DNA of 64,000 nt, taken from Minisyncoccia bacterium (lineage in GTDB: Bacteria; Patescibacteriota; Minisyncoccia; Phycocordibacterales; UBA9973). Below, piece by piece: positions 11,080 to 42,377 of the stretch. The notes beneath the pieces were generated by a model. It worked only from the letters and a program-made list of their open reading frames with translations. It ran no database searches and was not told the origin of the DNA. Position numbers and translations under genes: made by a program. Where the stretch lies: positions 15,092 to 79,091 of the forward strand of contig JBGATK010000002.1 in the NCBI GenBank assembly GCA_044229265.1. Direction: 5' to 3'. Each line of letters starts with the position of its first letter. Positions within the stretch are counted from its first letter, which is position 1.

Positions 11080-11152
11080 TTTTTTAGTATAACAAATTTT
11101 TCAAGAATTTTCCTTGCTTTTTATTTTTAACCAATTGTATAATATAGGCACA

Positions 11153-14100
11153 ATGCTATATCGGGTAAAATTCTTACCTTATATTCTCGTGGCATTCTTT
11201 GCCAGCTTGTTCTTCTTTGTTTCATTTTTACATCATGCTTTTGCATTTACTTATGTAAATACTGATATAAATACAGACACTACTTGGACACTATCCGGTA
11301 GTCCGTATATTATCGAGAAAACTATTATTGTTTTAGATGATGCGACGCTCTCTATCGAGCCCGGAGTCGCTATTAAATTTAAGGTGAAAGAGCCACTCTC
11401 TAATATGTATGTTTTTGGTAAAATTATTGCACAAGGCACAAATGATATGCCGATATATTTTACTTCTCTTTATGATGATATTGTTGCGCCGGAAACAGAT
11501 GATGAAGAATTTTGTGATGAAGAGTATGATGCCAAAGGCAATGTAATTTCTAAAACTAATTGTATATATTTGGATTTTTATGATCCACAGCCGAGGGACT
11601 GGGGAGGTTTATTTTTTATTTCTTCTTTAGGCTCTACTTTAGAAAACACTCATTTCTCGTATGGAAAGAATTTTTTTACTGTTCAAGAATCTGATATAAA
11701 TATTTTTAGAAATATAGAAATATCTCACGGCGAGCAAGGCATGGTTCTTTTTAATCATAGTTCTGTGAATTTTGAAAATGCAAAGTTAAAAGATATTTCC
11801 AGCAATGGCATCACTCTTTTCAATAATAGTTTTTTAAATTTTGATAAATTTATATTTGAAGAAGTGAATCGAAATCCGGCAATAGTTTTTAATGAGTCAT
11901 CTTTTTCAGGCCGTGGCCTCGATATGGGTCCGGGTATTACCAGTTCACGGCGCGATTATATCGTAGCTTTCAATGGCTCAAACTTAGTTTTAAAAGATTC
12001 TATTTTTAGAGATTGCGATCTAGGTTCATGTATAAATATTTTTGATGGCAGTAGTTATGAAGGCGAGGCTTCACTGCTAGATATAGATAAAACTATTTTC
12101 GAAGGAGGCAATGAAACAGCTATTACTATTTTTGGGTCTTTACCAATTAAAGCGAAAATAAACAATTCTGTTTTTGGTGATTTTCCTTTATATTCTATAG
12201 ATAATTTTTCTACAGATTTTGTTGTAGATGCTCGCAAGAATTTTTGGGGTAATGCTTCCGGTCCTTTTCATGCAACTGCAAACCCCACAGGTTTAGGAGA
12301 AAAAATTTCTGGTTTAGTGGATTTCGATCCGTGGTGTAAAACTCCTGACTGCACTTTCCGCAACCCTGTAATTTTTATCCCAGGAGTAATGGGTAATGAT
12401 ATTCTGCGCCCCGCCGAGGGTGATGAAGACGCTCCTCAAAAACTTTGGCTAAATATTACAAAAATGATTACAGATATTGGTGATGATTTTATGGATGCTT
12501 TAGGGCTGAATGAAGATTTTACACCGCTAAAAGATAATTTGATTATTGGAGATTTGATTAAAGAACCTTTAATCGGCCAGCATTTTTACGATAAAATTAT
12601 AGATGAACTTGTATTGCAAGGCTATGTCGAAGGTGAAGACATTTTCATTTTTCCTTACGATTGGCGCTATGGTGTGAGTGATGAAAATATAGCTTTATTA
12701 AAACAAAAAATTACAGATGTAAAAAACATTAAAGGTAGTGACAAGGTAGATGTAGTGGCTCATTCTACCGGTGGCTTGCTCGTAAAAAAATATGTAATAG
12801 ATAATTCTGCAAATCATAGTATAGATAAAGCTGTATTTGTAGGTGTACCATCTGCTGGCGCACCGCAAGCCGTAAAGATGCTTGTACAAGGTGATAATAT
12901 GAGAATACCATTTTTAGATTCGGATGAAATGAAAAAGATCGCAAAGAATTTACCTGTAGTTTATGACTTGTCTCCGAGCCTCGAATATTACAATAAAAAG
13001 GGAAGTTATATACAAATAAAGAATGTCATACCTTTTAAAAAGTCTACAATTAAAGATTTAAATTTTACAGAAGCAAATAATTATTTAATAGAAAAAGGTA
13101 AAAATAAAATAGCTTTGGAAGATGCTCATATTTTACATACTAAAGAATTCGATAATTTTGATATGCGCACAAGTGGAGTAGATGTATACAATATTGCTGG
13201 TTGCAAAGCTAGCACTTTTGGTACTTTAGTAGAAATTCATAATAAAAATATTTCAAAAAAAGATTTAGTATCGTATCGGGAACCGATATACATAAAAGGC
13301 GATGGCACAGTGCCACTCGAAAGTGCGACATTTTTACCAGTCGATGAGGCAAAAAGATTTTTTTCTCTAAATGCAGATCATGCTAAAATGCCCTCGCAAG
13401 ATGGCACGCGTCAGCTCATTACAAATATTATCTCTGGCAGTTCACTCCCTACTTCAAATAAAATCACTCAAGACATTGCGAAATGTAAATTAAATGGCAG
13501 GTCTATAGCAGTGTATAGCCCTGTAAATATCGAAGTCATAGATCAATACGGCAATAGGCTAGGTATTTTAGAAGATGGTATAAATACAGAAAATAATATT
13601 CCAAATGCGTATTTTGATATTGTAGATGAACATAAGTTTTTGTATTTACCTACAGATGAGGGTCAAATATATACGATAAATATCAAAGGCACAGGTGGGG
13701 GCACTTTTACTATTACTGATACAAAAATAGTTGATGATATAAAAACAGACATGCAAATTTTTAAGAATTTAGTAGTATCGCCAGCTCTCGTGGGAAGTAT
13801 TGTTTTAGGTGATGAAAGTATTTTGAATTTAGATAATGATGGCGATGGTGATGTAGATCAGAATTTAAAACCAGATATATTTTTAGATGAGGTAGAAGTA
13901 TTAGATTTTGAACCATATTTAGAAGAAAAATTAGAGGAAGAAATACCAAGAGTTGCTTCGTTTGGCGGTGGGGGCGGTGGAGGTTTCCCATTTGTATTTG
14001 TGGAACAAATAAAATCTTTGGCTTTGCTTCCACAAGTCCTCGGAGCTGAGACTAGTATAGTTGATACAGAAAAAGAAGCCTTTGAAAATAAAGAAAATTC

Positions 14101-14320
14101 TAAGCCTTTAATTATTCAAAATTCAGAAAAACCTAATATTGTATTAGATAATTCTTTTACTAATAATCCGCAAATTAAAGAAGAGAATATAGAAAATGCA
14201 AAAAATGCTAATATAATAATAGAAGAAAAAATAGAAAATAAATTTAGATATGAATACATAATTTATATCTTAATCATTATTGGTATTATCTTATTAGTAA
14301 AAAAAATTATAAAGTTGTAG
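11153..14320 (+). CDS. very large cell-surface protein: signal peptide, parallel beta-helix repeats, alpha/beta-hydrolase lipase domain (GxSxG = HSTGG, LCAT/PGAP1-like), Gly-rich segment, C-terminal TM anchor
   Basis: signal-like MLYRVKFLPYILVAFFASLFFFVSF; FIPGVMGN + VAHSTGGL lipase motifs; FGGGGGGGF then C-terminal hydrophobic YIIYILIIIGIILLV; TATAAT 9 nt upstream of ATG 11153 (ORF track start 11114 probably alternative). Confidence 0.6.
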   Translation: MLYRVKFLPYILVAFFASLFFFVSFLHHAFAFTYVNTDINTDTTWTLSGSPYIIEKTIIVLDDATLSIEPGVAIKFKVKEPLSNMYVFGKIIAQGTNDMPIYFTSLYDDIVAPETDDEEFCDEEYDAKGNVISKTNCIYLDFYDPQPRDWGGLFFISSLGSTLENTHFSYGKNFFTVQESDINIFRNIEISHGEQGMVLFNHSSVNFENAKLKDISSNGITLFNNSFLNFDKFIFEEVNRNPAIVFNESSFSGRGLDMGPGITSSRRDYIVAFNGSNLVLKDSIFRDCDLGSCINIFDGSSYEGEASLLDIDKTIFEGGNETAITIFGSLPIKAKINNSVFGDFPLYSIDNFSTDFVVDARKNFWGNASGPFHATANPTGLGEKISGLVDFDPWCKTPDCTFRNPVIFIPGVMGNDILRPAEGDEDAPQKLWLNITKMITDIGDDFMDALGLNEDFTPLKDNLIIGDLIKEPLIGQHFYDKIIDELVLQGYVEGEDIFIFPYDWRYGVSDENIALLKQKITDVKNIKGSDKVDVVAHSTGGLLVKKYVIDNSANHSIDKAVFVGVPSAGAPQAVKMLVQGDNMRIPFLDSDEMKKIAKNLPVVYDLSPSLEYYNKKGSYIQIKNVIPFKKSTIKDLNFTEANNYLIEKGKNKIALEDAHILHTKEFDNFDMRTSGVDVYNIAGCKASTFGTLVEIHNKNISKKDLVSYREPIYIKGDGTVPLESATFLPVDEAKRFFSLNADHAKMPSQDGTRQLITNIISGSSLPTSNKITQDIAKCKLNGRSIAVYSPVNIEVIDQYGNRLGILEDGINTENNIPNAYFDIVDEHKFLYLPTDEGQIYTINIKGTGGGTFTITDTKIVDDIKTDMQIFKNLVVSPALVGSIVLGDESILNLDNDGDGDVDQNLKPDIFLDEVEVLDFEPYLEEKLEEEIPRVASFGGGGGGGFPFVFVEQIKSLALLPQVLGAETSIVDTEKEAFENKENSKPLIIQNSEKPNIVLDNSFTNNPQIKEENIENAKNANIIIEEKIENKFRYEYIIYILIIIGIILLVKKIIKL

Positions 14321-15856: not shown

Positions 15857-16249
15857 ATGGAAAAAGATTTTGATAAGTGGAATGAAATCAAAAAGAAGAT
15901 TCATCAAGAGGAGAATATCCCAGATCGTTTTCCAAAAGAAGGCGAAGTTTGGATGTCTAACCTTGGTAAGAATATTGGATTTGAACAAAATGGAGGTGGA
16001 GAAAATTTCTCTAGGCCTATTTTAATAATTAAGAAATTCAATAATCATATGTTTTGGGTAGTACCTTTGTCCACAAAACAGAAAAATTTTGATTTTTATT
16101 ATAATTTTATAGATATAGATAATAAAAAAGTTTCAGCTATTCTTGCCCAATTAAAATTAATGAGTGTCAAAAGATTTAATAGAAAAATGTATGAAATGCC
16201 TCAAAATCAATTTGTTGATGTTTTGAATAAAATTAGAGGATTTATCTAA
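15857..16249 (+). CDS. MazF/PemK-family endoribonuclease toxin-like protein (solitary, no adjacent antitoxin seen)
   Basis: GEVWMSNLGKNIGFEQNGGGENFSRPILII...FWVVPLSTKQ matches MazF/PemK G-x-I/V-x-L-x-G-x-EQ-x-RP-x-LI-x-VxPxT pattern. Confidence 0.6.
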   Translation: MEKDFDKWNEIKKKIHQEENIPDRFPKEGEVWMSNLGKNIGFEQNGGGENFSRPILIIKKFNNHMFWVVPLSTKQKNFDFYYNFIDIDNKKVSAILAQLKLMSVKRFNRKMYEMPQNQFVDVLNKIRGFI

Positions 16250-16403: not shown

Positions 16404-16664
16404 ATGAAAAATAAAAATGACAAATTACATAGCTTGCCGGCAGATTTTAAGGAAGCGATAGATTCAAAAAGGGCAGTAGCTCATATGTGGCAGGATATCA
16501 CTCCGCTTGCTCGCAATGAATGGATCTGCTGGGTAGAATCTGCCAAAAAATTAGAAACTAGGCAAAGGCGAATAAAAATAGCCCTTTCGAAAATGAGCTC
16601 CGGCGAAAAGCGCCCCTGCTGCTGGGCCGGCTGTTCGCATCGAGGGAATAAAACAGTGGTATAA
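16404..16664 (+). CDS. YdeI/OmpD-associated (bacteriocin-protection) family small protein
   Basis: W-rich core and C-terminal CCWAGCSHR motif typical of YdeI-like family; 3' 122 bp duplicated downstream. Confidence 0.5.
   Translation: MKNKNDKLHSLPADFKEAIDSKRAVAHMWQDITPLARNEWICWVESAKKLETRQRRIKIALSKMSSGEKRPCCWAGCSHRGNKTVV
16522..16643. repeat. direct repeat copy 1 (3' end of ydeI-like gene), 122 bp
   Basis: 121/122 identical to 17312-17433. Confidence 0.9.
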
Positions 16665-16671
16665 TTTATAT

Positions 16672-17154
16672 ATGGAAAAGACAAGTATTTATATTGATGG
16701 AAATAATCTATATAGATCTGCAAAAGAGCTCGGTTTTAATATTGATTACAAAAAATTCATAGGATGGCTTCGTCAAAAATATAATCCAGAATTCGTTTAC
16801 TTGTTTATTGGTCTCGTGCCAGAGAGAACAAAGTTTTATGAACATCTACAAAAATGTGGTTATGTTTTAATTTTTAAACAAACTGTATCTGTGGGAGAAA
16901 AAATAAAAGGTAATTGTGATGCAGAACTGGTATTAAAAGCTGTTTCGGATTATTATACTAACTCATTTGATAAATTAATTTTGATTACTGGTGACGGGGA
17001 TTTTGGTTGCTTGGTGGAATTTATGAAAGATAAAAATTCGATGCATACTATTATTGCACCTGATGAAAAGAAATGTTCTTTTTTACTTAGAAATAAAAAT
17101 ACTGAAATTGTTTTTCTTAACAATCAATATCATAAATTCTCTAAGGAGCTATAA
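16672..17154 (+). CDS. NYN-domain (LabA/DUF88-like, PIN-fold) putative RNase
   Basis: IYIDGNNLY start and ILITGDGDFGCLVE motif typical of NYN domains; gene is bracketed by the 122-bp direct repeats. Confidence 0.65.
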   Translation: MEKTSIYIDGNNLYRSAKELGFNIDYKKFIGWLRQKYNPEFVYLFIGLVPERTKFYEHLQKCGYVLIFKQTVSVGEKIKGNCDAELVLKAVSDYYTNSFDKLILITGDGDFGCLVEFMKDKNSMHTIIAPDEKKCSFLLRNKNTEIVFLNNQYHKFSKEL

Positions 17155-17199: not shown

Positions 17200-17311
17200 C
17201 ATAGTGATACATGTATACTATCAAATTTTTATAAAAAAGTCAAAGTTTTCCACATTTTATAATCTTGTCAAAATTCCTCATAGATTAAGTCCATCTCGGG
17301 AATGGACATAT

Positions 17312-17433
17312 GGATCTGCTGGGTAGAATCTGCCAAAAAATTAGAAACTAGGCAAAGGCGAATAAAAATAGCCCTTTCGAAAATGAGCTCCGGCGAAAAG
17401 CGCCCCTGCTGCTGGGCCGGGTGTTCGCATCGA
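17312..17433. repeat. direct repeat copy 2 (duplicated ydeI-like 3' end), 122 bp
   Basis: single mismatch versus 16522-16643. Confidence 0.9.
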
Positions 17434-17484: not shown

Positions 17485-17490
17485 TTGGGC

Positions 17491-17838
17491 ATGTCTGATT
17501 TACAAAAACTAACAAAGCAAATAAACAAATTCCGAAAAGAACGAAATTGGGAACAATTCCATAATCCTAAAGACATGGCTCTTTCGTTGGTTTTAGAGGC
17601 GACAGAGTTGATGGAGCATTTTCAGTGGAAAAACGGTGAAGATTTAACAAATTATATAAAGAAAAATAAAAAAGAAATTTCTTATGAACTTGCAGATACT
17701 CTTTATTGGGTTTTAACTATTGCTCATGATTTTAATATTGATATTGTAAAATCTTTTACTGAGAAGATGAAAATTAATGCAAAAAAATATCCTGTTTCAA
17801 AATTCAAAGGACGTGCTGGCAAATATAATGAAGTATAA
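17491..17838 (+). CDS. MazG-like nucleoside triphosphate pyrophosphohydrolase
   Basis: EATELMEHF...LADTLYWVL motifs of the all-alpha MazG/NTP-PPase fold; ORF track start 17485 is a TTG, ATG at 17491 preferred. Confidence 0.7.
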   Translation: MSDLQKLTKQINKFRKERNWEQFHNPKDMALSLVLEATELMEHFQWKNGEDLTNYIKKNKKEISYELADTLYWVLTIAHDFNIDIVKSFTEKMKINAKKYPVSKFKGRAGKYNEV

Positions 17839-17841
17839 TTT

Positions 17842-19866
17842 ATGTCCGATATAAAAACTTTCCCTTTTAATAAAGAAGATTTTGATCAAATAAAAAATTT
17901 TAAATTTGGTAAAAATTGGCCTGTTGTTTATGTTCTTGAAGATAAGAAAGAAATTTATATCGGTCAAACGGTAAATGCTCATGCAAGAAGCAAGCAACAT
18001 TATGAAAACCCAGAAAGAAGTAAATTAAAAAGTATTCATATCATAACCGACGAAGAATTTAATGTTTCAGCAGCACTTGATATAGAGTCATGGTTAATAC
18101 AGTACATATCTGCTGATGGATTATTTATATTGCAAAATGGTAATGGTGGGCTAAAAAATCATAACTATTACGATAGAGTAAAATATAAAACAAAATTCGA
18201 ACTTGCTTGGGATAATTTAATGCAAATGGGTATTGTTAAAAACACTCTAGAAGACCTTAAAAATAGCGACTTATTCAAATATTCTCCTTACAAATCTTTG
18301 ACAGAAGACCAATTTACAATAGCTAGGCAGATATTCAAAGACATAAAGAAGAATGAAATAAATACTTTTATAGTAAATGGTAAACCGGGTACTGGTAAAA
18401 CAATTCTTGCTACTTATCTTTTTAAATACCTAAAAGAACAAGATGAAACAAAAAATATGAATATTGGCCTTGTTGTGCCAATGGCATCACTTCGAAAAAC
18501 AATTGCTAGGGTATTTTCAAAAATAAAAGGCTTAAAATCAAACATGGTTATTGGGCCAAATGATGTTGTTAAAGATAAATATGACTTACTTATCGTTGAT
18601 GAATCTCATAGATTACAAAGGCGTAAAGGTATTATGGGTTATGGTGCATATGACAATGTAAACCGAGGGCTTGGCCTGGGTAATGAAGGAACACAGCTTG
18701 ATTGGATTATGAAGTCATCTAAACATCAAATATTTTTCTATGATGAAAATCAAAGTGTAAAACCGGCCGATATTAGACCCGAGGATTTTAAAAAGCTTAA
18801 TTCTAAAAAGTATGAATTAGTTTCCCAAATGCGAGTTGAGGCTGGTGAAGAATATATTAAATTCATCGAAGATTTTTTTGATTTAAAAACTCCACAAAAT
18901 ACTAATTTTCCAAATTATGATTTGAAAATATTTGATAATGCTGAAAAAATGGTAAATGAAATTAAGGAAAAAGATAAAAAGCATAAACTTGCACGTGTAG
19001 TTGCTGGCTATGCTTGGCCTTGGCACACAGCACGTGGTACTCGTGATTATGATATAGAGATAGGTGATTTAAAACTTATCTGGAATTCTACAGCGCAAGA
19101 CTGGGTAAACTCACCAAACGCAATAAACGAAGTTGGTTGTATTCATACTGTACAAGGTTATGATTTAAATTATGTTGGTGTAATTATTGGCCCAGAATTT
19201 TCATATGACACAGAAAATAAAAAATTCAAAGTCGATAAGGAAAAATATTTTGATACAAATGGCCGTAATGGTATTACTGATCCAAACGAACTAGAAAGAT
19301 ATGTAATCAATATTTATAAAACATTACTAACTCGAGGCATTAAAGGTACTTATGTTTATGTTGTTGATGAAAATTTGAGAAATTATTTAAATCAAGTTGT
19401 AAATAAAACCCCGATTTCAATTCAAAAAGAAATTACTCCAAAAATTATAAGATCTCCTTATGCAGGAGAAATGATAGGAATTCCTCTAGTTGGTTCTGCT
19501 CCCTGTGGTGAACCACTTTTAGGAGAAAGCAATATAGAAGAGATAATCATGGTAGAGAAAAGCAAAATAAAACCTGGAGCAAAATATTTTATATTGCGTG
19601 CGAGTGGAGATTCTATGAACAAAGCCGGAATAAATGACGGAGACTTAGTGCTTTGTCGTTCATCAGAAAAAGGAGAAACTGGAGACAGAGTTGTCGCATT
19701 ATTAGGAGGTGAAAATGTGACAATAAAATATTATGATAAAAAAGACGGGCGGAGAATATTATTACCAAAAAGCACAAATAGTTCACACCAACCAATAATT
19801 CCAGAAGAAGGTGATAGTGTTCAGGGCATTGTGCAAGAGGTTATTGAAAGATTAGAGGAAAAATAA
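17842..19866 (+). CDS. three-domain fusion: N-terminal GIY-YIG nuclease, central DUF2075-type SF1-like P-loop ATPase/helicase, C-terminal LexA/UmuD-type S24 peptidase domain
   Basis: VVYVL...EIYIGQT...R...E (GIY-YIG); Walker A GKPGTGKT, Walker B LLIVDESHRL, motif GCIHTVQGYDLNYVGVIIG (SF1 motif VI-like); C-term IPLVGSAPCGEPLL...RASGDSM...GINDGDLV...VTIKYY (S24 Ser-Lys dyad and Cys-Gly cleavage site as in UmuD). Confidence 0.8.
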   Translation: MSDIKTFPFNKEDFDQIKNFKFGKNWPVVYVLEDKKEIYIGQTVNAHARSKQHYENPERSKLKSIHIITDEEFNVSAALDIESWLIQYISADGLFILQNGNGGLKNHNYYDRVKYKTKFELAWDNLMQMGIVKNTLEDLKNSDLFKYSPYKSLTEDQFTIARQIFKDIKKNEINTFIVNGKPGTGKTILATYLFKYLKEQDETKNMNIGLVVPMASLRKTIARVFSKIKGLKSNMVIGPNDVVKDKYDLLIVDESHRLQRRKGIMGYGAYDNVNRGLGLGNEGTQLDWIMKSSKHQIFFYDENQSVKPADIRPEDFKKLNSKKYELVSQMRVEAGEEYIKFIEDFFDLKTPQNTNFPNYDLKIFDNAEKMVNEIKEKDKKHKLARVVAGYAWPWHTARGTRDYDIEIGDLKLIWNSTAQDWVNSPNAINEVGCIHTVQGYDLNYVGVIIGPEFSYDTENKKFKVDKEKYFDTNGRNGITDPNELERYVINIYKTLLTRGIKGTYVYVVDENLRNYLNQVVNKTPISIQKEITPKIIRSPYAGEMIGIPLVGSAPCGEPLLGESNIEEIIMVEKSKIKPGAKYFILRASGDSMNKAGINDGDLVLCRSSEKGETGDRVVALLGGENVTIKYYDKKDGRRILLPKSTNSSHQPIIPEEGDSVQGIVQEVIERLEEK

Positions 19867-19870
19867 ATTT

Positions 19871-20686
19871 ATGAACGAATTACAAGCAATAAAAGAAATA
19901 GTAAAAGCAAATTCAACTGCAGTTTATCAAGATTCAGCACAACCATCTGTTCGTGTTTTAGGAAAGTCTTTAGCACAATGTGTTTCTTTGTTTGCAACAC
20001 CAATTGGTAGGATGGCTGAAATTTTTGAAAAGAATCTCTCACGCTATATTGATAAGTTGGAGGGTTTGTCGTCTGATCAAATCATATTACCAGAAACTAG
20101 AGTGTTAGTTCCAATTCTTGAACGGCTTCGTTATACAGATGACGAAGTAGTCGCTGATTATTATGCTCAAATATTAGCAACTGCTTCAACAACTGAAAAC
20201 GCAAAAAAAGTATCTGTTGCTTTTATTGAGATTCTTAATCGTTTATGTGCAGATGAAATTAGAGTACTTGAATTTATAAATTCACCAAATAATACAATGC
20301 TCCTAGAGAATGAAGCTAATGAAAAATATAATCTTTCACTTTTCGGTGTTTTACCGGTAATAAATATACATTTAAACTTAAAAGAAGGGGGTTATATTGT
20401 AGCCATAAAGAACTTAAATTATCTGACAGAAAAAATTACGCTTAATAATCCCGATAATTTAAATATGTATTTTGACAACATGATTGCATTAGGTCTTCTT
20501 TTGAAACCTGCAATGATAAGGGCTCATGATAATAATATTTATACATATATAAAGAAAAACCTTTTAATAAAAGAAGTTGAATCGAAACTTGCTGAAGGAC
20601 AAACAATTGATTATTCTGAAGCCAGGATAGAAACTACAGAGCTCGGTAAACAATTGTTGAATATTGCATCAAATAAAATAAAGTAG
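19871..20686 (+). CDS. Abi-alpha (DUF4393)-like hypothetical protein, co-operonic with the nuclease-helicase
   Basis: 4-bp gap to upstream gene; segment ILPETRVLVPILERLRYTDDEVVADYYAQILATAS...FIEILNRLCADEIRVLEFI resembles Abi-alpha core pattern; family call tentative. Confidence 0.4.
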   Translation: MNELQAIKEIVKANSTAVYQDSAQPSVRVLGKSLAQCVSLFATPIGRMAEIFEKNLSRYIDKLEGLSSDQIILPETRVLVPILERLRYTDDEVVADYYAQILATASTTENAKKVSVAFIEILNRLCADEIRVLEFINSPNNTMLLENEANEKYNLSLFGVLPVINIHLNLKEGGYIVAIKNLNYLTEKITLNNPDNLNMYFDNMIALGLLLKPAMIRAHDNNIYTYIKKNLLIKEVESKLAEGQTIDYSEARIETTELGKQLLNIASNKIK

Positions 20687-21006: not shown

Positions 21007-21525
21007 ATGACAAAATATATAGTATTTGTGGCAGCTATGCTTTTTATTGGTTTTATTTTTCCTATACTTAAAAAGAAATTAGAGGGCAAGGAAGAAAAAC
21101 CAGCTTTATCTAATTATTTTAATAGAAGAAAATTTTTGTTTGATGTAGCTTCAGAATTGAATTTTTATAAAATATTGATGGAATTATATGGTAATAATTA
21201 TAGAATATTTGCTCAAGTGCAATATAGTCACCTTGTAGAACCAAAGAAATCTTTATCTTTTGTAGAAAGTAGAAAATATAGAAATATGATTGATAGAAAG
21301 TCGGCTGATTTTGTGATTTGTGATAAGGATACTATAGCTCCGATCTTAGTAATAGAGCTCGACGGTAGTGTTCATTCCCAAGCTAAAGTAAGAATAAATG
21401 ATGAATTTAAAAACGAAATAACTAAAGTTGTGGATTTACCATTGCTTCGCATTAATGCTGAGAATATAGATAAAGAATATATAAAAAATAAAATAGATTC
21501 AATTATTTCTTCTCGATTAAATTAA
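21007..21525 (+). CDS. DUF2726-domain protein (restriction-endonuclease-like fold)
   Basis: N-terminal TM; NFYKILMELYG...RIFAQVQYSHLV...ADFVICDKDTIAPILVIELDGSVH pattern typical of DUF2726. Confidence 0.55.
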   Translation: MTKYIVFVAAMLFIGFIFPILKKKLEGKEEKPALSNYFNRRKFLFDVASELNFYKILMELYGNNYRIFAQVQYSHLVEPKKSLSFVESRKYRNMIDRKSADFVICDKDTIAPILVIELDGSVHSQAKVRINDEFKNEITKVVDLPLLRINAENIDKEYIKNKIDSIISSRLN

Positions 21526-39461: not shown

Positions 39462-39618
39462 TAAATTGAGAACCCCGACATTTCAAGTCGGGAAGCAAGT
39501 CTCAAAATGTTTCTAAAATAATAATTTCTAGAGCAGGATCAAATTGTGAACTCTGCAAAAAACTACCGAGCCTTTGGGCGAGGTGAATCTGTTTTTTGTT
39601 TTGTTCCATTCTAACTTT

Positions 39619-41228
<1,610 letters not shown>

Positions 41229-41495
41229 TTTTGAAATATCTCACTTTTTATTAAGTGGGTGATCGAGTCGATCTTTTGTGCCACAATTGAGCACAAAAGA
41301 GTTTGGTTAAACTTAAAACAACATGACATTTGGAAAGACAAAAAACAATAAAGTTTCCTTCGTCGCTAAAGCTATGAAGGATAAGAATGGAACAAAACAA
41401 AGAACATATTCAATGTTTTCTCTAAAAGAAAAACTCTTCGCAAGAAGGGTTTTTCTTTTTACTGATTTTTAATTTTTGTTGTATAATATATGTAT

Positions 41496-42377
41496 ATGAA
41501 AATTGGAATACTTCGTGGAGGAGAAGAAAATTATGAAGACTCTGTAAATAAAGGAGGTAAATATATTTTGCATATTTTTGAAAAGATGCCTGAATATAAA
41601 GCTGTAGATATTTTTATTGATAAAAATAATGCTTGGCACTTATCCGGATTACCTACGAATCCTTCGCAAATATTTAAAGAGGTTGATCTGGTTTACAATG
41701 TAGCTCATCCTTCTTTTGGAAAAATGCTTGAGAATTTTGGAATAAAAGTTGTGGGTCCGTCATCATTTTCTTTTGGACTTACTCATCAGCGTCCGCTTCT
41801 TCAAAATTATTTAAAACAAATTGGGGTAAATATGCCACGCACTATATTATTACCTGTTTTTCAAAAAGATATAGATATAGATTTAGAAGATTATATAAAT
41901 AAAAAATCTAGAGAAGTTTTTGAAAAATTTGGTGCACCTTATATAGTACGCGCATTAAACCATAGTAAAATGGTGGGCATACACGTAGCTAGAACTTATC
42001 CAGAATTAATAAATGCAATTCGTGATGTTCTCTCTCACGGCGAAAGTGTTTTGATAGAAGAAATGATTTCTGGTAAAGTTTTTTCAGCACACACAGTTGC
42101 TAATTTTAAAAATGAAAATATCTATGCATTACCACTTTCTGGTTATAAACATAAAGAGAAAGATAATATTTTAGATATAGCAAAAAAATTGCATCAGCAT
42201 TTAGACGCAGGTCCTTATTTAAAATCCGATTTTGTGATTCATCCAAAACGCGGAATTTTCTGTATTAATGTGGATTTACATCCAAATATAAAAGAAGATT
42301 CTAATTTTTGTAAGAATTGTAATGAGATAGGGTTAAGTCCAAGCATGATTCTCGAACACTTTTTTCAAAAAGCTTAG
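41496..42377 (+). CDS. D-alanine--D-alanine ligase-like ATP-grasp enzyme
   Basis: MKIGILRGGEENYEDSVNKG N-terminal Ddl-like pattern; ATP-grasp-like C-terminal half; TATAAT 8 nt upstream of this ATG (ORF-track start 41490). Confidence 0.55.
   Translation: MKIGILRGGEENYEDSVNKGGKYILHIFEKMPEYKAVDIFIDKNNAWHLSGLPTNPSQIFKEVDLVYNVAHPSFGKMLENFGIKVVGPSSFSFGLTHQRPLLQNYLKQIGVNMPRTILLPVFQKDIDIDLEDYINKKSREVFEKFGAPYIVRALNHSKMVGIHVARTYPELINAIRDVLSHGESVLIEEMISGKVFSAHTVANFKNENIYALPLSGYKHKEKDNILDIAKKLHQHLDAGPYLKSDFVIHPKRGIFCINVDLHPNIKEDSNFCKNCNEIGLSPSMILEHFFQKA

Follow-up and report, generated by a model that had tools for sequence, protein, structure and literature searches.

Among described anti-phage proteins, Nhi from Staphylococcus epidermidis (SERP2475) joins a nuclease to a DUF2075 helicase; both activities are needed for immunity, and the protein blocks the accumulation of phage DNA (bioRxiv 10.1101/776245). 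The C-terminus of Nhi is described as poorly conserved and glyoxalase-like (bioRxiv 10.1101/776245). The lactococcal protein AbiO is also anti-phage, and the nucleases of both Nhi and AbiO are of the PD-(D/E)XK type. To our knowledge, the S24 autopeptidases characterised so far are all transcriptional repressors (LexA and the phage CI-type proteins) or UmuD-type polymerase accessory factors. Here we describe a gene in which a GIY-YIG-type nuclease and a DUF2075 helicase are followed by an S24 domain of LexA type. It lies on the forward strand at positions 17842–19866 of a 64,000-nucleotide stretch of DNA from a Minisyncoccia bacterium of the Patescibacteriota (GenBank assembly GCA_044229265.1, contig JBGATK010000002.1, positions 15,092 to 79,091), which was analysed as a whole and is called the window below, and it directly follows a gene for a MazG-like pyrophosphohydrolase.

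The 17842–19866 region is a single uninterrupted open reading frame (ORF) encoding 674 amino acids (77.2 kDa), here called the fusion protein. An earlier sequence-only reading of this DNA had quoted a peptide translated from 19420–19866; the peptide is exact, and it is the C-terminus of the 674-residue product. The partner gene, the fusion gene and the parts of its product are arranged as follows (pLDDT, predicted local distance difference test score; SF1B, helicase superfamily 1B).

17485–17838, forward strand: gene for a MazG-like (DCTPP1/RS21-C6-like) all-alpha nucleoside triphosphate (NTP) pyrophosphohydrolase of 117 amino acids (PF12643, PDB match)
17842–19866, forward strand: fusion gene, GIY-YIG / DUF2075 SF1B helicase / S24 (ORF list, domain profiles, AlphaFold2 model)
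17842–18246, forward strand: GIY-YIG-type nuclease domain, residues ~1–135 (motif residues, Pfam scores of homologues, PADLOC PDC-S14)
18259–19401, forward strand: DUF2075/Schlafen-group-3 SF1B helicase core, residues ~140–520 (Pfam PF09848, Foldseek)
19402–19479, forward strand: flexible inter-domain linker, residues ~521–546 (low pLDDT, low conservation)
19480–19845, forward strand: Peptidase S24 domain, residues 547–668 (PF00717, NCBIfam lexA, PDB LexA, Foldseek)
19504–19509, forward strand: predicted scissile bond Cys555-Gly556 (aligned to the LexA and UmuD sites)
19612–19614, forward strand: catalytic Ser591 (LexA/UmuD alignment)
19726–19728, forward strand: catalytic Lys629 (LexA/UmuD alignment)

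The Peptidase_S24 profile (PF00717) matches residues 548–657 with 74.1 bits (cut-off 23.3; E = 9.9e-21). A phmmer search against all PDB chains returned E. coli LexA (E = 8e-16) and UmuD (E = 7e-10). In the LexA alignment IPLVGSAPCGEPLL falls on LPLVGRVAAGEPLL, so that Cys555-Gly556 occupies the position of the scissile Ala84-Gly85 of LexA; GDSM falls on GMSM (Ser591 on Ser119) and VTIK on VTVK (Lys629 on Lys156). BLASTP against UmuD, using a UmuD sequence checked against PDB 8gmt_B, placed Cys555-Gly556 on Cys24-Gly25, Ser591 on Ser60 and Lys629 on Lys97. An AlphaFold2 model of the fusion protein, built from an alignment of 70 sequences (mean pLDDT 87.3, predicted template modelling score 0.72), was compared with the PDB by Foldseek, and its C-terminal domain superposes on the C-terminal domains of LexA proteins with a target-normalised template modelling (TM) score of 0.80–0.85, a root-mean-square deviation of 2.4 Å and 36–38% identity. 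We conclude that the C-terminal region is a bona fide S24 fold, in which the catalytic Ser/Lys dyad and a Cys-Gly of scissile type lie in the register of LexA. The S24, LexA and UmuD E-values, together with the conservation of the region in close homologues, exclude a chance match.

These results bear out most of what the sequence-only reading had claimed for this region, namely a LexA/UmuD-like dyad formed by the Ser of GDSM and the Lys of VTIK, in register with both proteins; the non-S24 fold that it had named as a possible outcome was not seen in the predicted structure. Its term 'UmuD-type' holds for the Cys-Gly dipeptide but not for the domain as a whole, which is more LexA-like (80 versus 53 bits). 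In detail, the NCBIfam lexA model (TIGR00498) scores 80.1 bits, below its cut-off of 110.95 and over model positions 76–200 only, and the UmuD model (NF007621) scores 52.9 bits, below its cut-off of 110. Because only the C-terminal half of the LexA model is matched, the UmuD match is weaker and both fall below cut-off, we class the fusion protein, on its profile scores, as neither LexA nor UmuD but as a bearer of their catalytic domain.

The segment ahead of the S24 domain has the properties of a flexible tether. Residues 525–542 are predicted to be disordered (pLDDT below 50), and across 120 close homologues residues 511–545 form the least conserved stretch of the protein (mean column conservation 0.49, versus 0.80–0.86 in the domains). 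Cleavage at the predicted site would give an N-terminal nuclease-helicase of 555 residues (64.2 kDa) and an S24 core of 119 residues (13.0 kDa). This LexA-like topology, with cargo, flexible linker, cleavage site and S24 core in that order, fits a self-cleavage switch.

A search of 5.8 billion proteins returned more than 120 clusters (90% identity clustering) that are 70–100% identical to the window protein, all of them with both PF09848 and PF00717; where named, they belong to Patescibacteria (Pacebacteria/Paceibacterota, Roizmanbacteria and Nomurabacteria). A gene-fusion or assembly artefact is ruled out, since the same architecture recurs in these independent clusters, from many assemblies and sources. 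Within the 120 close homologues Cys555 is kept in all and Gly556 in 119, and the GDSM and TIK motifs are invariant or nearly so (a motif search missed TIK in 16 of the 120). The Ser is likewise invariant, and the Lys at least 90% conserved, in a 70-sequence alignment (A2). Fifteen more divergent S24 fusions, 35–50% identical to the window protein, keep the Ser without exception, the Lys in 14 cases (Arg in the remaining one) and an Ala-Gly or Cys-Gly at the site in 14. The dipeptide, the Ser and the Lys are thereby also retained in divergent fusions from Bacteroidota and Gammaproteobacteria.

The S24 domains of this family are of two kinds. With a profile of the window type, E. coli LexA scores 68 bits and UmuD 60, but the S24 domains fused in Bacteroidota and Gammaproteobacteria score only 14–26. 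These second-type domains (L016–L057 and P0123–P0207 in our sets) have an insertion of about 20–25 residues in the beta-hairpin ahead of the catalytic Lys, with the pattern 'D.DS.FG..YT[VI]KEY.S.K', and a profile of this long-hairpin type scores about 27 bits alike on the window protein, LexA and UmuD. By these scores the Bacteroidota and Gammaproteobacteria domains represent a distinct S24 subtype, as far from the window S24 as from LexA and UmuD. Since two distinct S24 types are joined to one helicase family, S24 was likely fused to these enzymes on at least two independent occasions, and such repeated acquisition argues that the combination is selected.

The remainder of the fusion protein agrees with the nuclease and ATPase assignments of the sequence-only reading, which had proposed a GIY-YIG nuclease plus an SF1-like ATPase. 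The GIY-YIG Pfam match of the window protein itself (residues 29–59, 16.8 bits) lies below the cut-off of 22.6, but homologues pass it (31.3, 29.7, 28.0 and 27.7 bits), and the motif residues Y30, Y39, G41, R49, H53, E82, N99 and N101 do not vary among 70 sequences with identities as low as 35%. The PADLOC profile PDC-S14 matches residues 2–139, and the modelled nuclease domain has strands at 28–33, 37–43 and 64–69 and helices at 46–55 and 75–92. The DUF2075/Schlafen-group-3 profile (PF09848) covers residues 175–509 with 238.4 bits (E = 1.9e-70). Within this core, the Walker A motif GKPGTGKT (K186) and the Walker B motif VDESH (D253, E254) are present, with Lys186 and Asp253-Glu254 invariant in the 70 aligned sequences, and the core superposes on the SF1B helicases RecD2, SLFN11, SLFN14, Dda, Upf1, Dna2 and RecD (Foldseek against PDB).

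Relatives of this enzyme are numerous (9192 cluster representatives at 50% identity with E ≤ 1e-3, and 506 with E ≤ 1e-30, in an exhaustive HMMER search), and most consist of GIY-YIG and DUF2075 domains only, 520–590 residues long, without S24. The domain is present in 18 of the 150 best family representatives (~12%). On a neighbour-joining tree of the nuclease-helicase core, a crude distance tree in which a few S24-less calls may be ORFs cut at contig ends, members with and without S24 are interleaved, and two S24-less members (L008 and L009) fall inside the Patescibacteria S24 clade. We therefore read S24 as an optional module of the family. The S24-less relatives have a median length of 576 amino acids (n = 114), compared with 555 for the predicted N-terminal cleavage product. 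Among two further members (P0263 and P0167), one has a C-terminal HTH_3 domain (Cro/CI-type) in the place of S24 and the other an N-terminal HsdR_N domain, and regulatory domains seem to be added with particular frequency at the C-terminus of this enzyme family.

S24 fusions are found in metagenome-assembled genomes (MAGs) labelled Saccharibacteria, in Flavobacterium, Pedobacter, Chitinophaga, Marivirga, Aequorivita and Nonlabens, and further in Nitrincola, Alcanivorax, Marinobacter, Lentisphaeria and others; relatives that lack S24 come from Clostridia, Actinomycetota, Coriobacteriia, Mycoplasmatota and one Woesearchaeota MAG. No full-length S24 fusion was found in the phage and plasmid collections searched, where the plasmid-borne relatives are all S24-less and reside on Bacillus megaplasmids. 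One IMG/VR contig (L085) bears an S24 fusion together with a MazG gene.

The stop codon of the MazG-like gene lies 3 nucleotides ahead of the ATG of the fusion gene. Its product scores 49.1 bits on MazG-like PF12643 (cut-off 27), and its closest solved relative is dCTP pyrophosphatase 1 (PDB 6sqw and 2a3q; E = 5.9e-17 over residues 12–116). The metal-binding residues E38, E41, E67 and D70 (EXXE...EXXD) are at least 95% conserved in 87 such partners. In each of four metagenomic loci retrieved through an exact protein match, a MazG-like homologue sits at the equivalent place, and of 95 loci with relatives, from several phyla and gathered from GTDB genomes and IMG/VR, about 85 have one next to the relative. 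The homologue usually lies upstream with a 4-nucleotide overlap and, in some Firmicutes, downstream. The pairing with the GIY-YIG-DUF2075 gene is independent of whether S24 is present; on plasmid pIS56-233 of Bacillus thuringiensis, for instance, the annotation has a 'nucleotide pyrophosphohydrolase' adjoining a 'DUF2075 domain-containing protein'. Because the MazG-like gene is conserved beside the fusion gene or its relatives, we assign the functional unit, from gene neighbourhood, as a two-gene operon of a MazG-like gene and a nuclease-helicase gene. None of 269 family proteins was a 'Rosetta-stone' fusion of MazG and helicase, and a promoter and terminator scan around the operon gave counts not above those for shuffled sequence.

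We believe that the best single account of this locus, to which we give a probability of about 0.5, is a nuclease-helicase resembling Nhi and AbiO that has a LexA-type self-cleavage switch, is encoded in an operon with a DCTPP1-like enzyme, becomes active on cleavage, and serves in defence or abortive infection. At rest, by comparison with the S24 family, the S24 core would hold the protein in an S24-mediated dimer or another restrained state. A filament of RecA on single-stranded DNA (ssDNA), formed upon DNA damage, phage DNA replication or prophage induction, would then dock on the S24 core as in LexA, CI and UmuD, and by the same analogy RecA-ssDNA most probably stimulates cleavage. Docking would promote the cleavable conformation, in which Ser591 and Lys629 would cut Cys555-Gly556. 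The freed 555-residue nuclease-helicase, equivalent in size to the S24-less relatives, would unwind and cut DNA, and the MazG-like partner might hydrolyse dCTP or modified (deoxy)nucleoside triphosphates in support.

Activation on cleavage is preferred because the 555-residue product matches the S24-less enzymes, so that the simplest effect of cleavage would be to free the usual active form. In the reverse case, RecA-stimulated self-cleavage would inactivate or remove the nuclease-helicase, and an enzyme active against ssDNA or replication intermediates would be withdrawn during repair of the cell's own DNA. This direction has precedent, since the characterised S24 repressors (LexA and lambda CI) are all inactivated by cleavage. 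LexA(1–84) has a -VAA end that serves as a ClpXP degradation signal, and cleavage at Ala-Gly in several of the divergent fusions would leave a comparable C-terminal -VAA or -AAA (for example 'KVAA|G' in P0127 and 'SAAA|G' in P0123). The window family, however, would end in -SAPC and so expose no such degradation tag; its N-terminal product has the size and domain content of the natural S24-less enzymes, which are presumably active; and UmuD shows that S24 cleavage can activate. We regard inactivation as unlikely.

For the activated nuclease-helicase, the role is most likely accessory genome defence or abortive infection and not housekeeping. A defence role is favoured because Nhi and AbiO, which are nuclease and DUF2075 helicase proteins, are anti-phage; the partial PADLOC matches to Nhi and AbiO, the defence-type neighbours, the varying genomic context and the relatives on Bacillus megaplasmids give support. 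Neighbours at 35 other S24-bearing loci include SoFic (three times), mad genes, a dCTPase, restriction enzymes, CapP and several PDC candidates, and the survey is compatible with a mobile accessory or defence function. Several points weigh against the defence role. This neighbour survey has no background control and also returned housekeeping genes, among them those for glycyl-tRNA synthetase and AcrB; the PADLOC Nhi match is confined to the helicase part, and the nuclease fold is unlike that of Nhi; identities of 70–93% over many Patescibacteria assemblies could mean strong housekeeping constraint, not horizontal spread; and a nucleotide-pool sanitiser, a GIY-YIG nuclease, a helicase and an SOS-type protease fit DNA repair equally well.

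The last two points lead to a different role, that of a DNA-repair or genome-maintenance module in which an SOS-type repair nuclease-helicase is licensed post-translationally and accompanied by a pyrophosphatase that sanitises the nucleotide pool. GIY-YIG is the nuclease fold of UvrC and Cho, MazG and DCTPP1 are house-cleaning enzymes, and S24 is an SOS sensor; in the small genomes of Patescibacteria, where transcriptional SOS control is slight, a module of this kind could be of value, sequence conservation within Patescibacteria is very high, and many neighbours in other phyla are housekeeping genes. Against this stand the different genomic contexts of near-identical copies, the patchy and mixed phylogenetic distribution, the plasmid-borne relatives, the defence-type neighbours in the window and elsewhere, and the anti-phage function of the characterised DUF2075 nuclease-helicases Nhi and AbiO. 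We regard a repair module as a serious rival, though an improbable one. It is very improbable that the S24 domain does not cleave and acts only in dimerisation or in binding the RecA filament to recruit the helicase to ssDNA-RecA, as the C-terminal domains of LexA and UmuD do dimerise and bind the filament groove (PDB 8trg, 8gms and 8gmt are among the matches), since Ser, Lys and the small-residue-Gly site are kept across 35–100% identity and two S24 types, which would be unexpected of a non-catalytic domain, and the Lys is lost in only one of 15 divergent members.

Around the operon, Pfam and PADLOC matches identified the following further genes in the window.

15857–16249: PemK/MazF-like toxin gene
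16672–17154: NYN-domain gene
19871–20686: Abi_alpha (PF14337)/PADLOC PDC-S47 gene (134 bits)
21007–21525: DUF2726 gene

With the PemK/MazF-like, NYN and DUF2726 genes on its flanks, the operon region resembles a small defence or accessory island. The NYN-domain gene is bracketed by a 124-nucleotide direct repeat (16520–16643 and 17310–17433, 99% identical and 790 nucleotides apart), of which the second copy duplicates the 3' end of the ORF at 16404–16664; the repeat pair looks like an insertion or duplication scar beside the operon. The Abi_alpha gene begins 4 nucleotides past the stop codon of the fusion gene. It was considered as a third operon component and ruled out, as no homologue is present in 94 related loci and the downstream genes differ in L001–L007; it is probably a separate defence gene on a shared transcript. 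Loci encoding 78–82% identical proteins have entirely different flanks, and no third conserved neighbour emerged, with no family present in more than four of the 35 S24-bearing loci (Pfam and PADLOC, 133 flanking ORFs). The neighbours scanned with Pfam included no adjacent umuC, and tblastn found neither recA nor a second S24 gene in the 64-kb window, a result that is uninformative for a piece of this size.

Elsewhere in the window, a bacterial 16S rRNA gene spans 39618–41230 (1337 bits; 1613 nucleotides against a model of 1533 positions) and is followed after about 260 nucleotides by an ORF at 41490–42377, so that no 23S gene appears directly after it; a 16S gene without a directly following 23S is usual in Patescibacteria. 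No tRNA gene was found in the window. The ORF at 11114–14320 (1068 amino acids, TTG start) encodes hydrophobic N- and C-terminal segments and a Gly-rich stretch, and its product is probably a large secreted or surface protein.

If the activation reading is correct, an enzyme can be licensed by the SOS signal, RecA on ssDNA, through the protein itself and with no transcriptional step; this would be a fast route, perhaps of particular value to Patescibacteria with their small genomes. Pairs of a DCTPP1-like pyrophosphatase and a Schlafen-type nuclease-helicase are conserved very broadly, and offer a tractable bacterial model for the coupling of Schlafen-type helicases to DNA-stress sensing; homologues in the cultivable Flavobacterium, Pedobacter, Chitinophaga, Marinobacter and Alcanivorax make the predictions directly testable. 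A wider proposal, which we put forward tentatively as possible and short of probable, is that these proteins constitute a third functional class of S24 protein, in addition to repressors and to polymerase subunits of the UmuD type, as enzyme effectors armed post-translationally when RecA-ssDNA stimulates their self-cleavage. In that case the operon of MazG/DCTPP1-like and GIY-YIG-DUF2075 genes would be a widespread, unnamed two-gene immune system (in Patescibacteria, Bacteroidota, Proteobacteria, Firmicutes, Actinobacteria and some archaea), and its S24 variants would be a bacterial counterpart of SLFN11 that senses ssDNA stress and then destroys replicating DNA while the partner drains dCTP or modified dCTP. 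A full-text literature search, which had most subscription journals outside its coverage, found no paper on a DUF2075-S24 fusion or a DUF2075-MazG pairing. In automatic annotation by the Joint Genome Institute, the label 'DUF2075 family protein/SOS-response transcriptional repressor LexA' is already attached to some homologues, so the architecture is visible in databases.

With Nhi, AbiO and the 'Nhi-like' protein of Millman et al. (2022), the fusion protein shares the arrangement of an N-terminal nuclease followed by a DUF2075 (PF09848) SF1B helicase on one polypeptide. The PADLOC Nhi profile gives a partial match of 64 bits (positions 173–376 of 470), as does the AbiO profile (58.9 bits, positions 167–432 of 468). 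It differs in the nuclease, which is GIY-YIG in the window protein and PD-(D/E)XK in Nhi and AbiO, and in the C-terminus, which is S24 here and glyoxalase-like in Nhi. A term search of the accessible portions of the Nhi and AbiO literature found no mention of an S24 domain or a MazG-like partner. Because its nuclease has another fold and the Nhi profile matches it only in part, the fusion protein would not qualify as Nhi in the strict sense.

With LexA, lambda CI and UmuD (MEROPS S24) it shares the fold, the Ser-Lys dyad and an Ala/Cys-Gly site in the same register, and with LexA also the layout of cargo, linker, site and S24 core and 36–43% identity to the C-terminal domain of the E. coli protein. 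Its cargo, however, is a 555-residue enzyme and not a winged-helix or helix-turn-helix DNA-binding domain or the short arm of UmuD, and its S24 domain lies within a 674-residue protein, whereas UmuD stands alone at about 140 residues. The partner belongs to the all-alpha MazG-like fold family of DCTPP1/RS21-C6 and has its EXXE and EXXD metal-binding residues; unlike DCTPP1, the bacterial protein is 117 residues long and is translationally coupled to a nuclease-helicase. The eukaryotic group 3 Schlafen proteins SLFN11 and SLFN14 have the same helicase family (PF09848) and rank with the best structural matches of the core in Foldseek, but carry an N-terminal Schlafen RNase core in place of GIY-YIG, have no S24 domain and are only ~11–12% identical. 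SLFN11 acts at the ssDNA of stressed replication forks, an action that, purely as an analogy, would parallel that of an S24 module sensing RecA on ssDNA.

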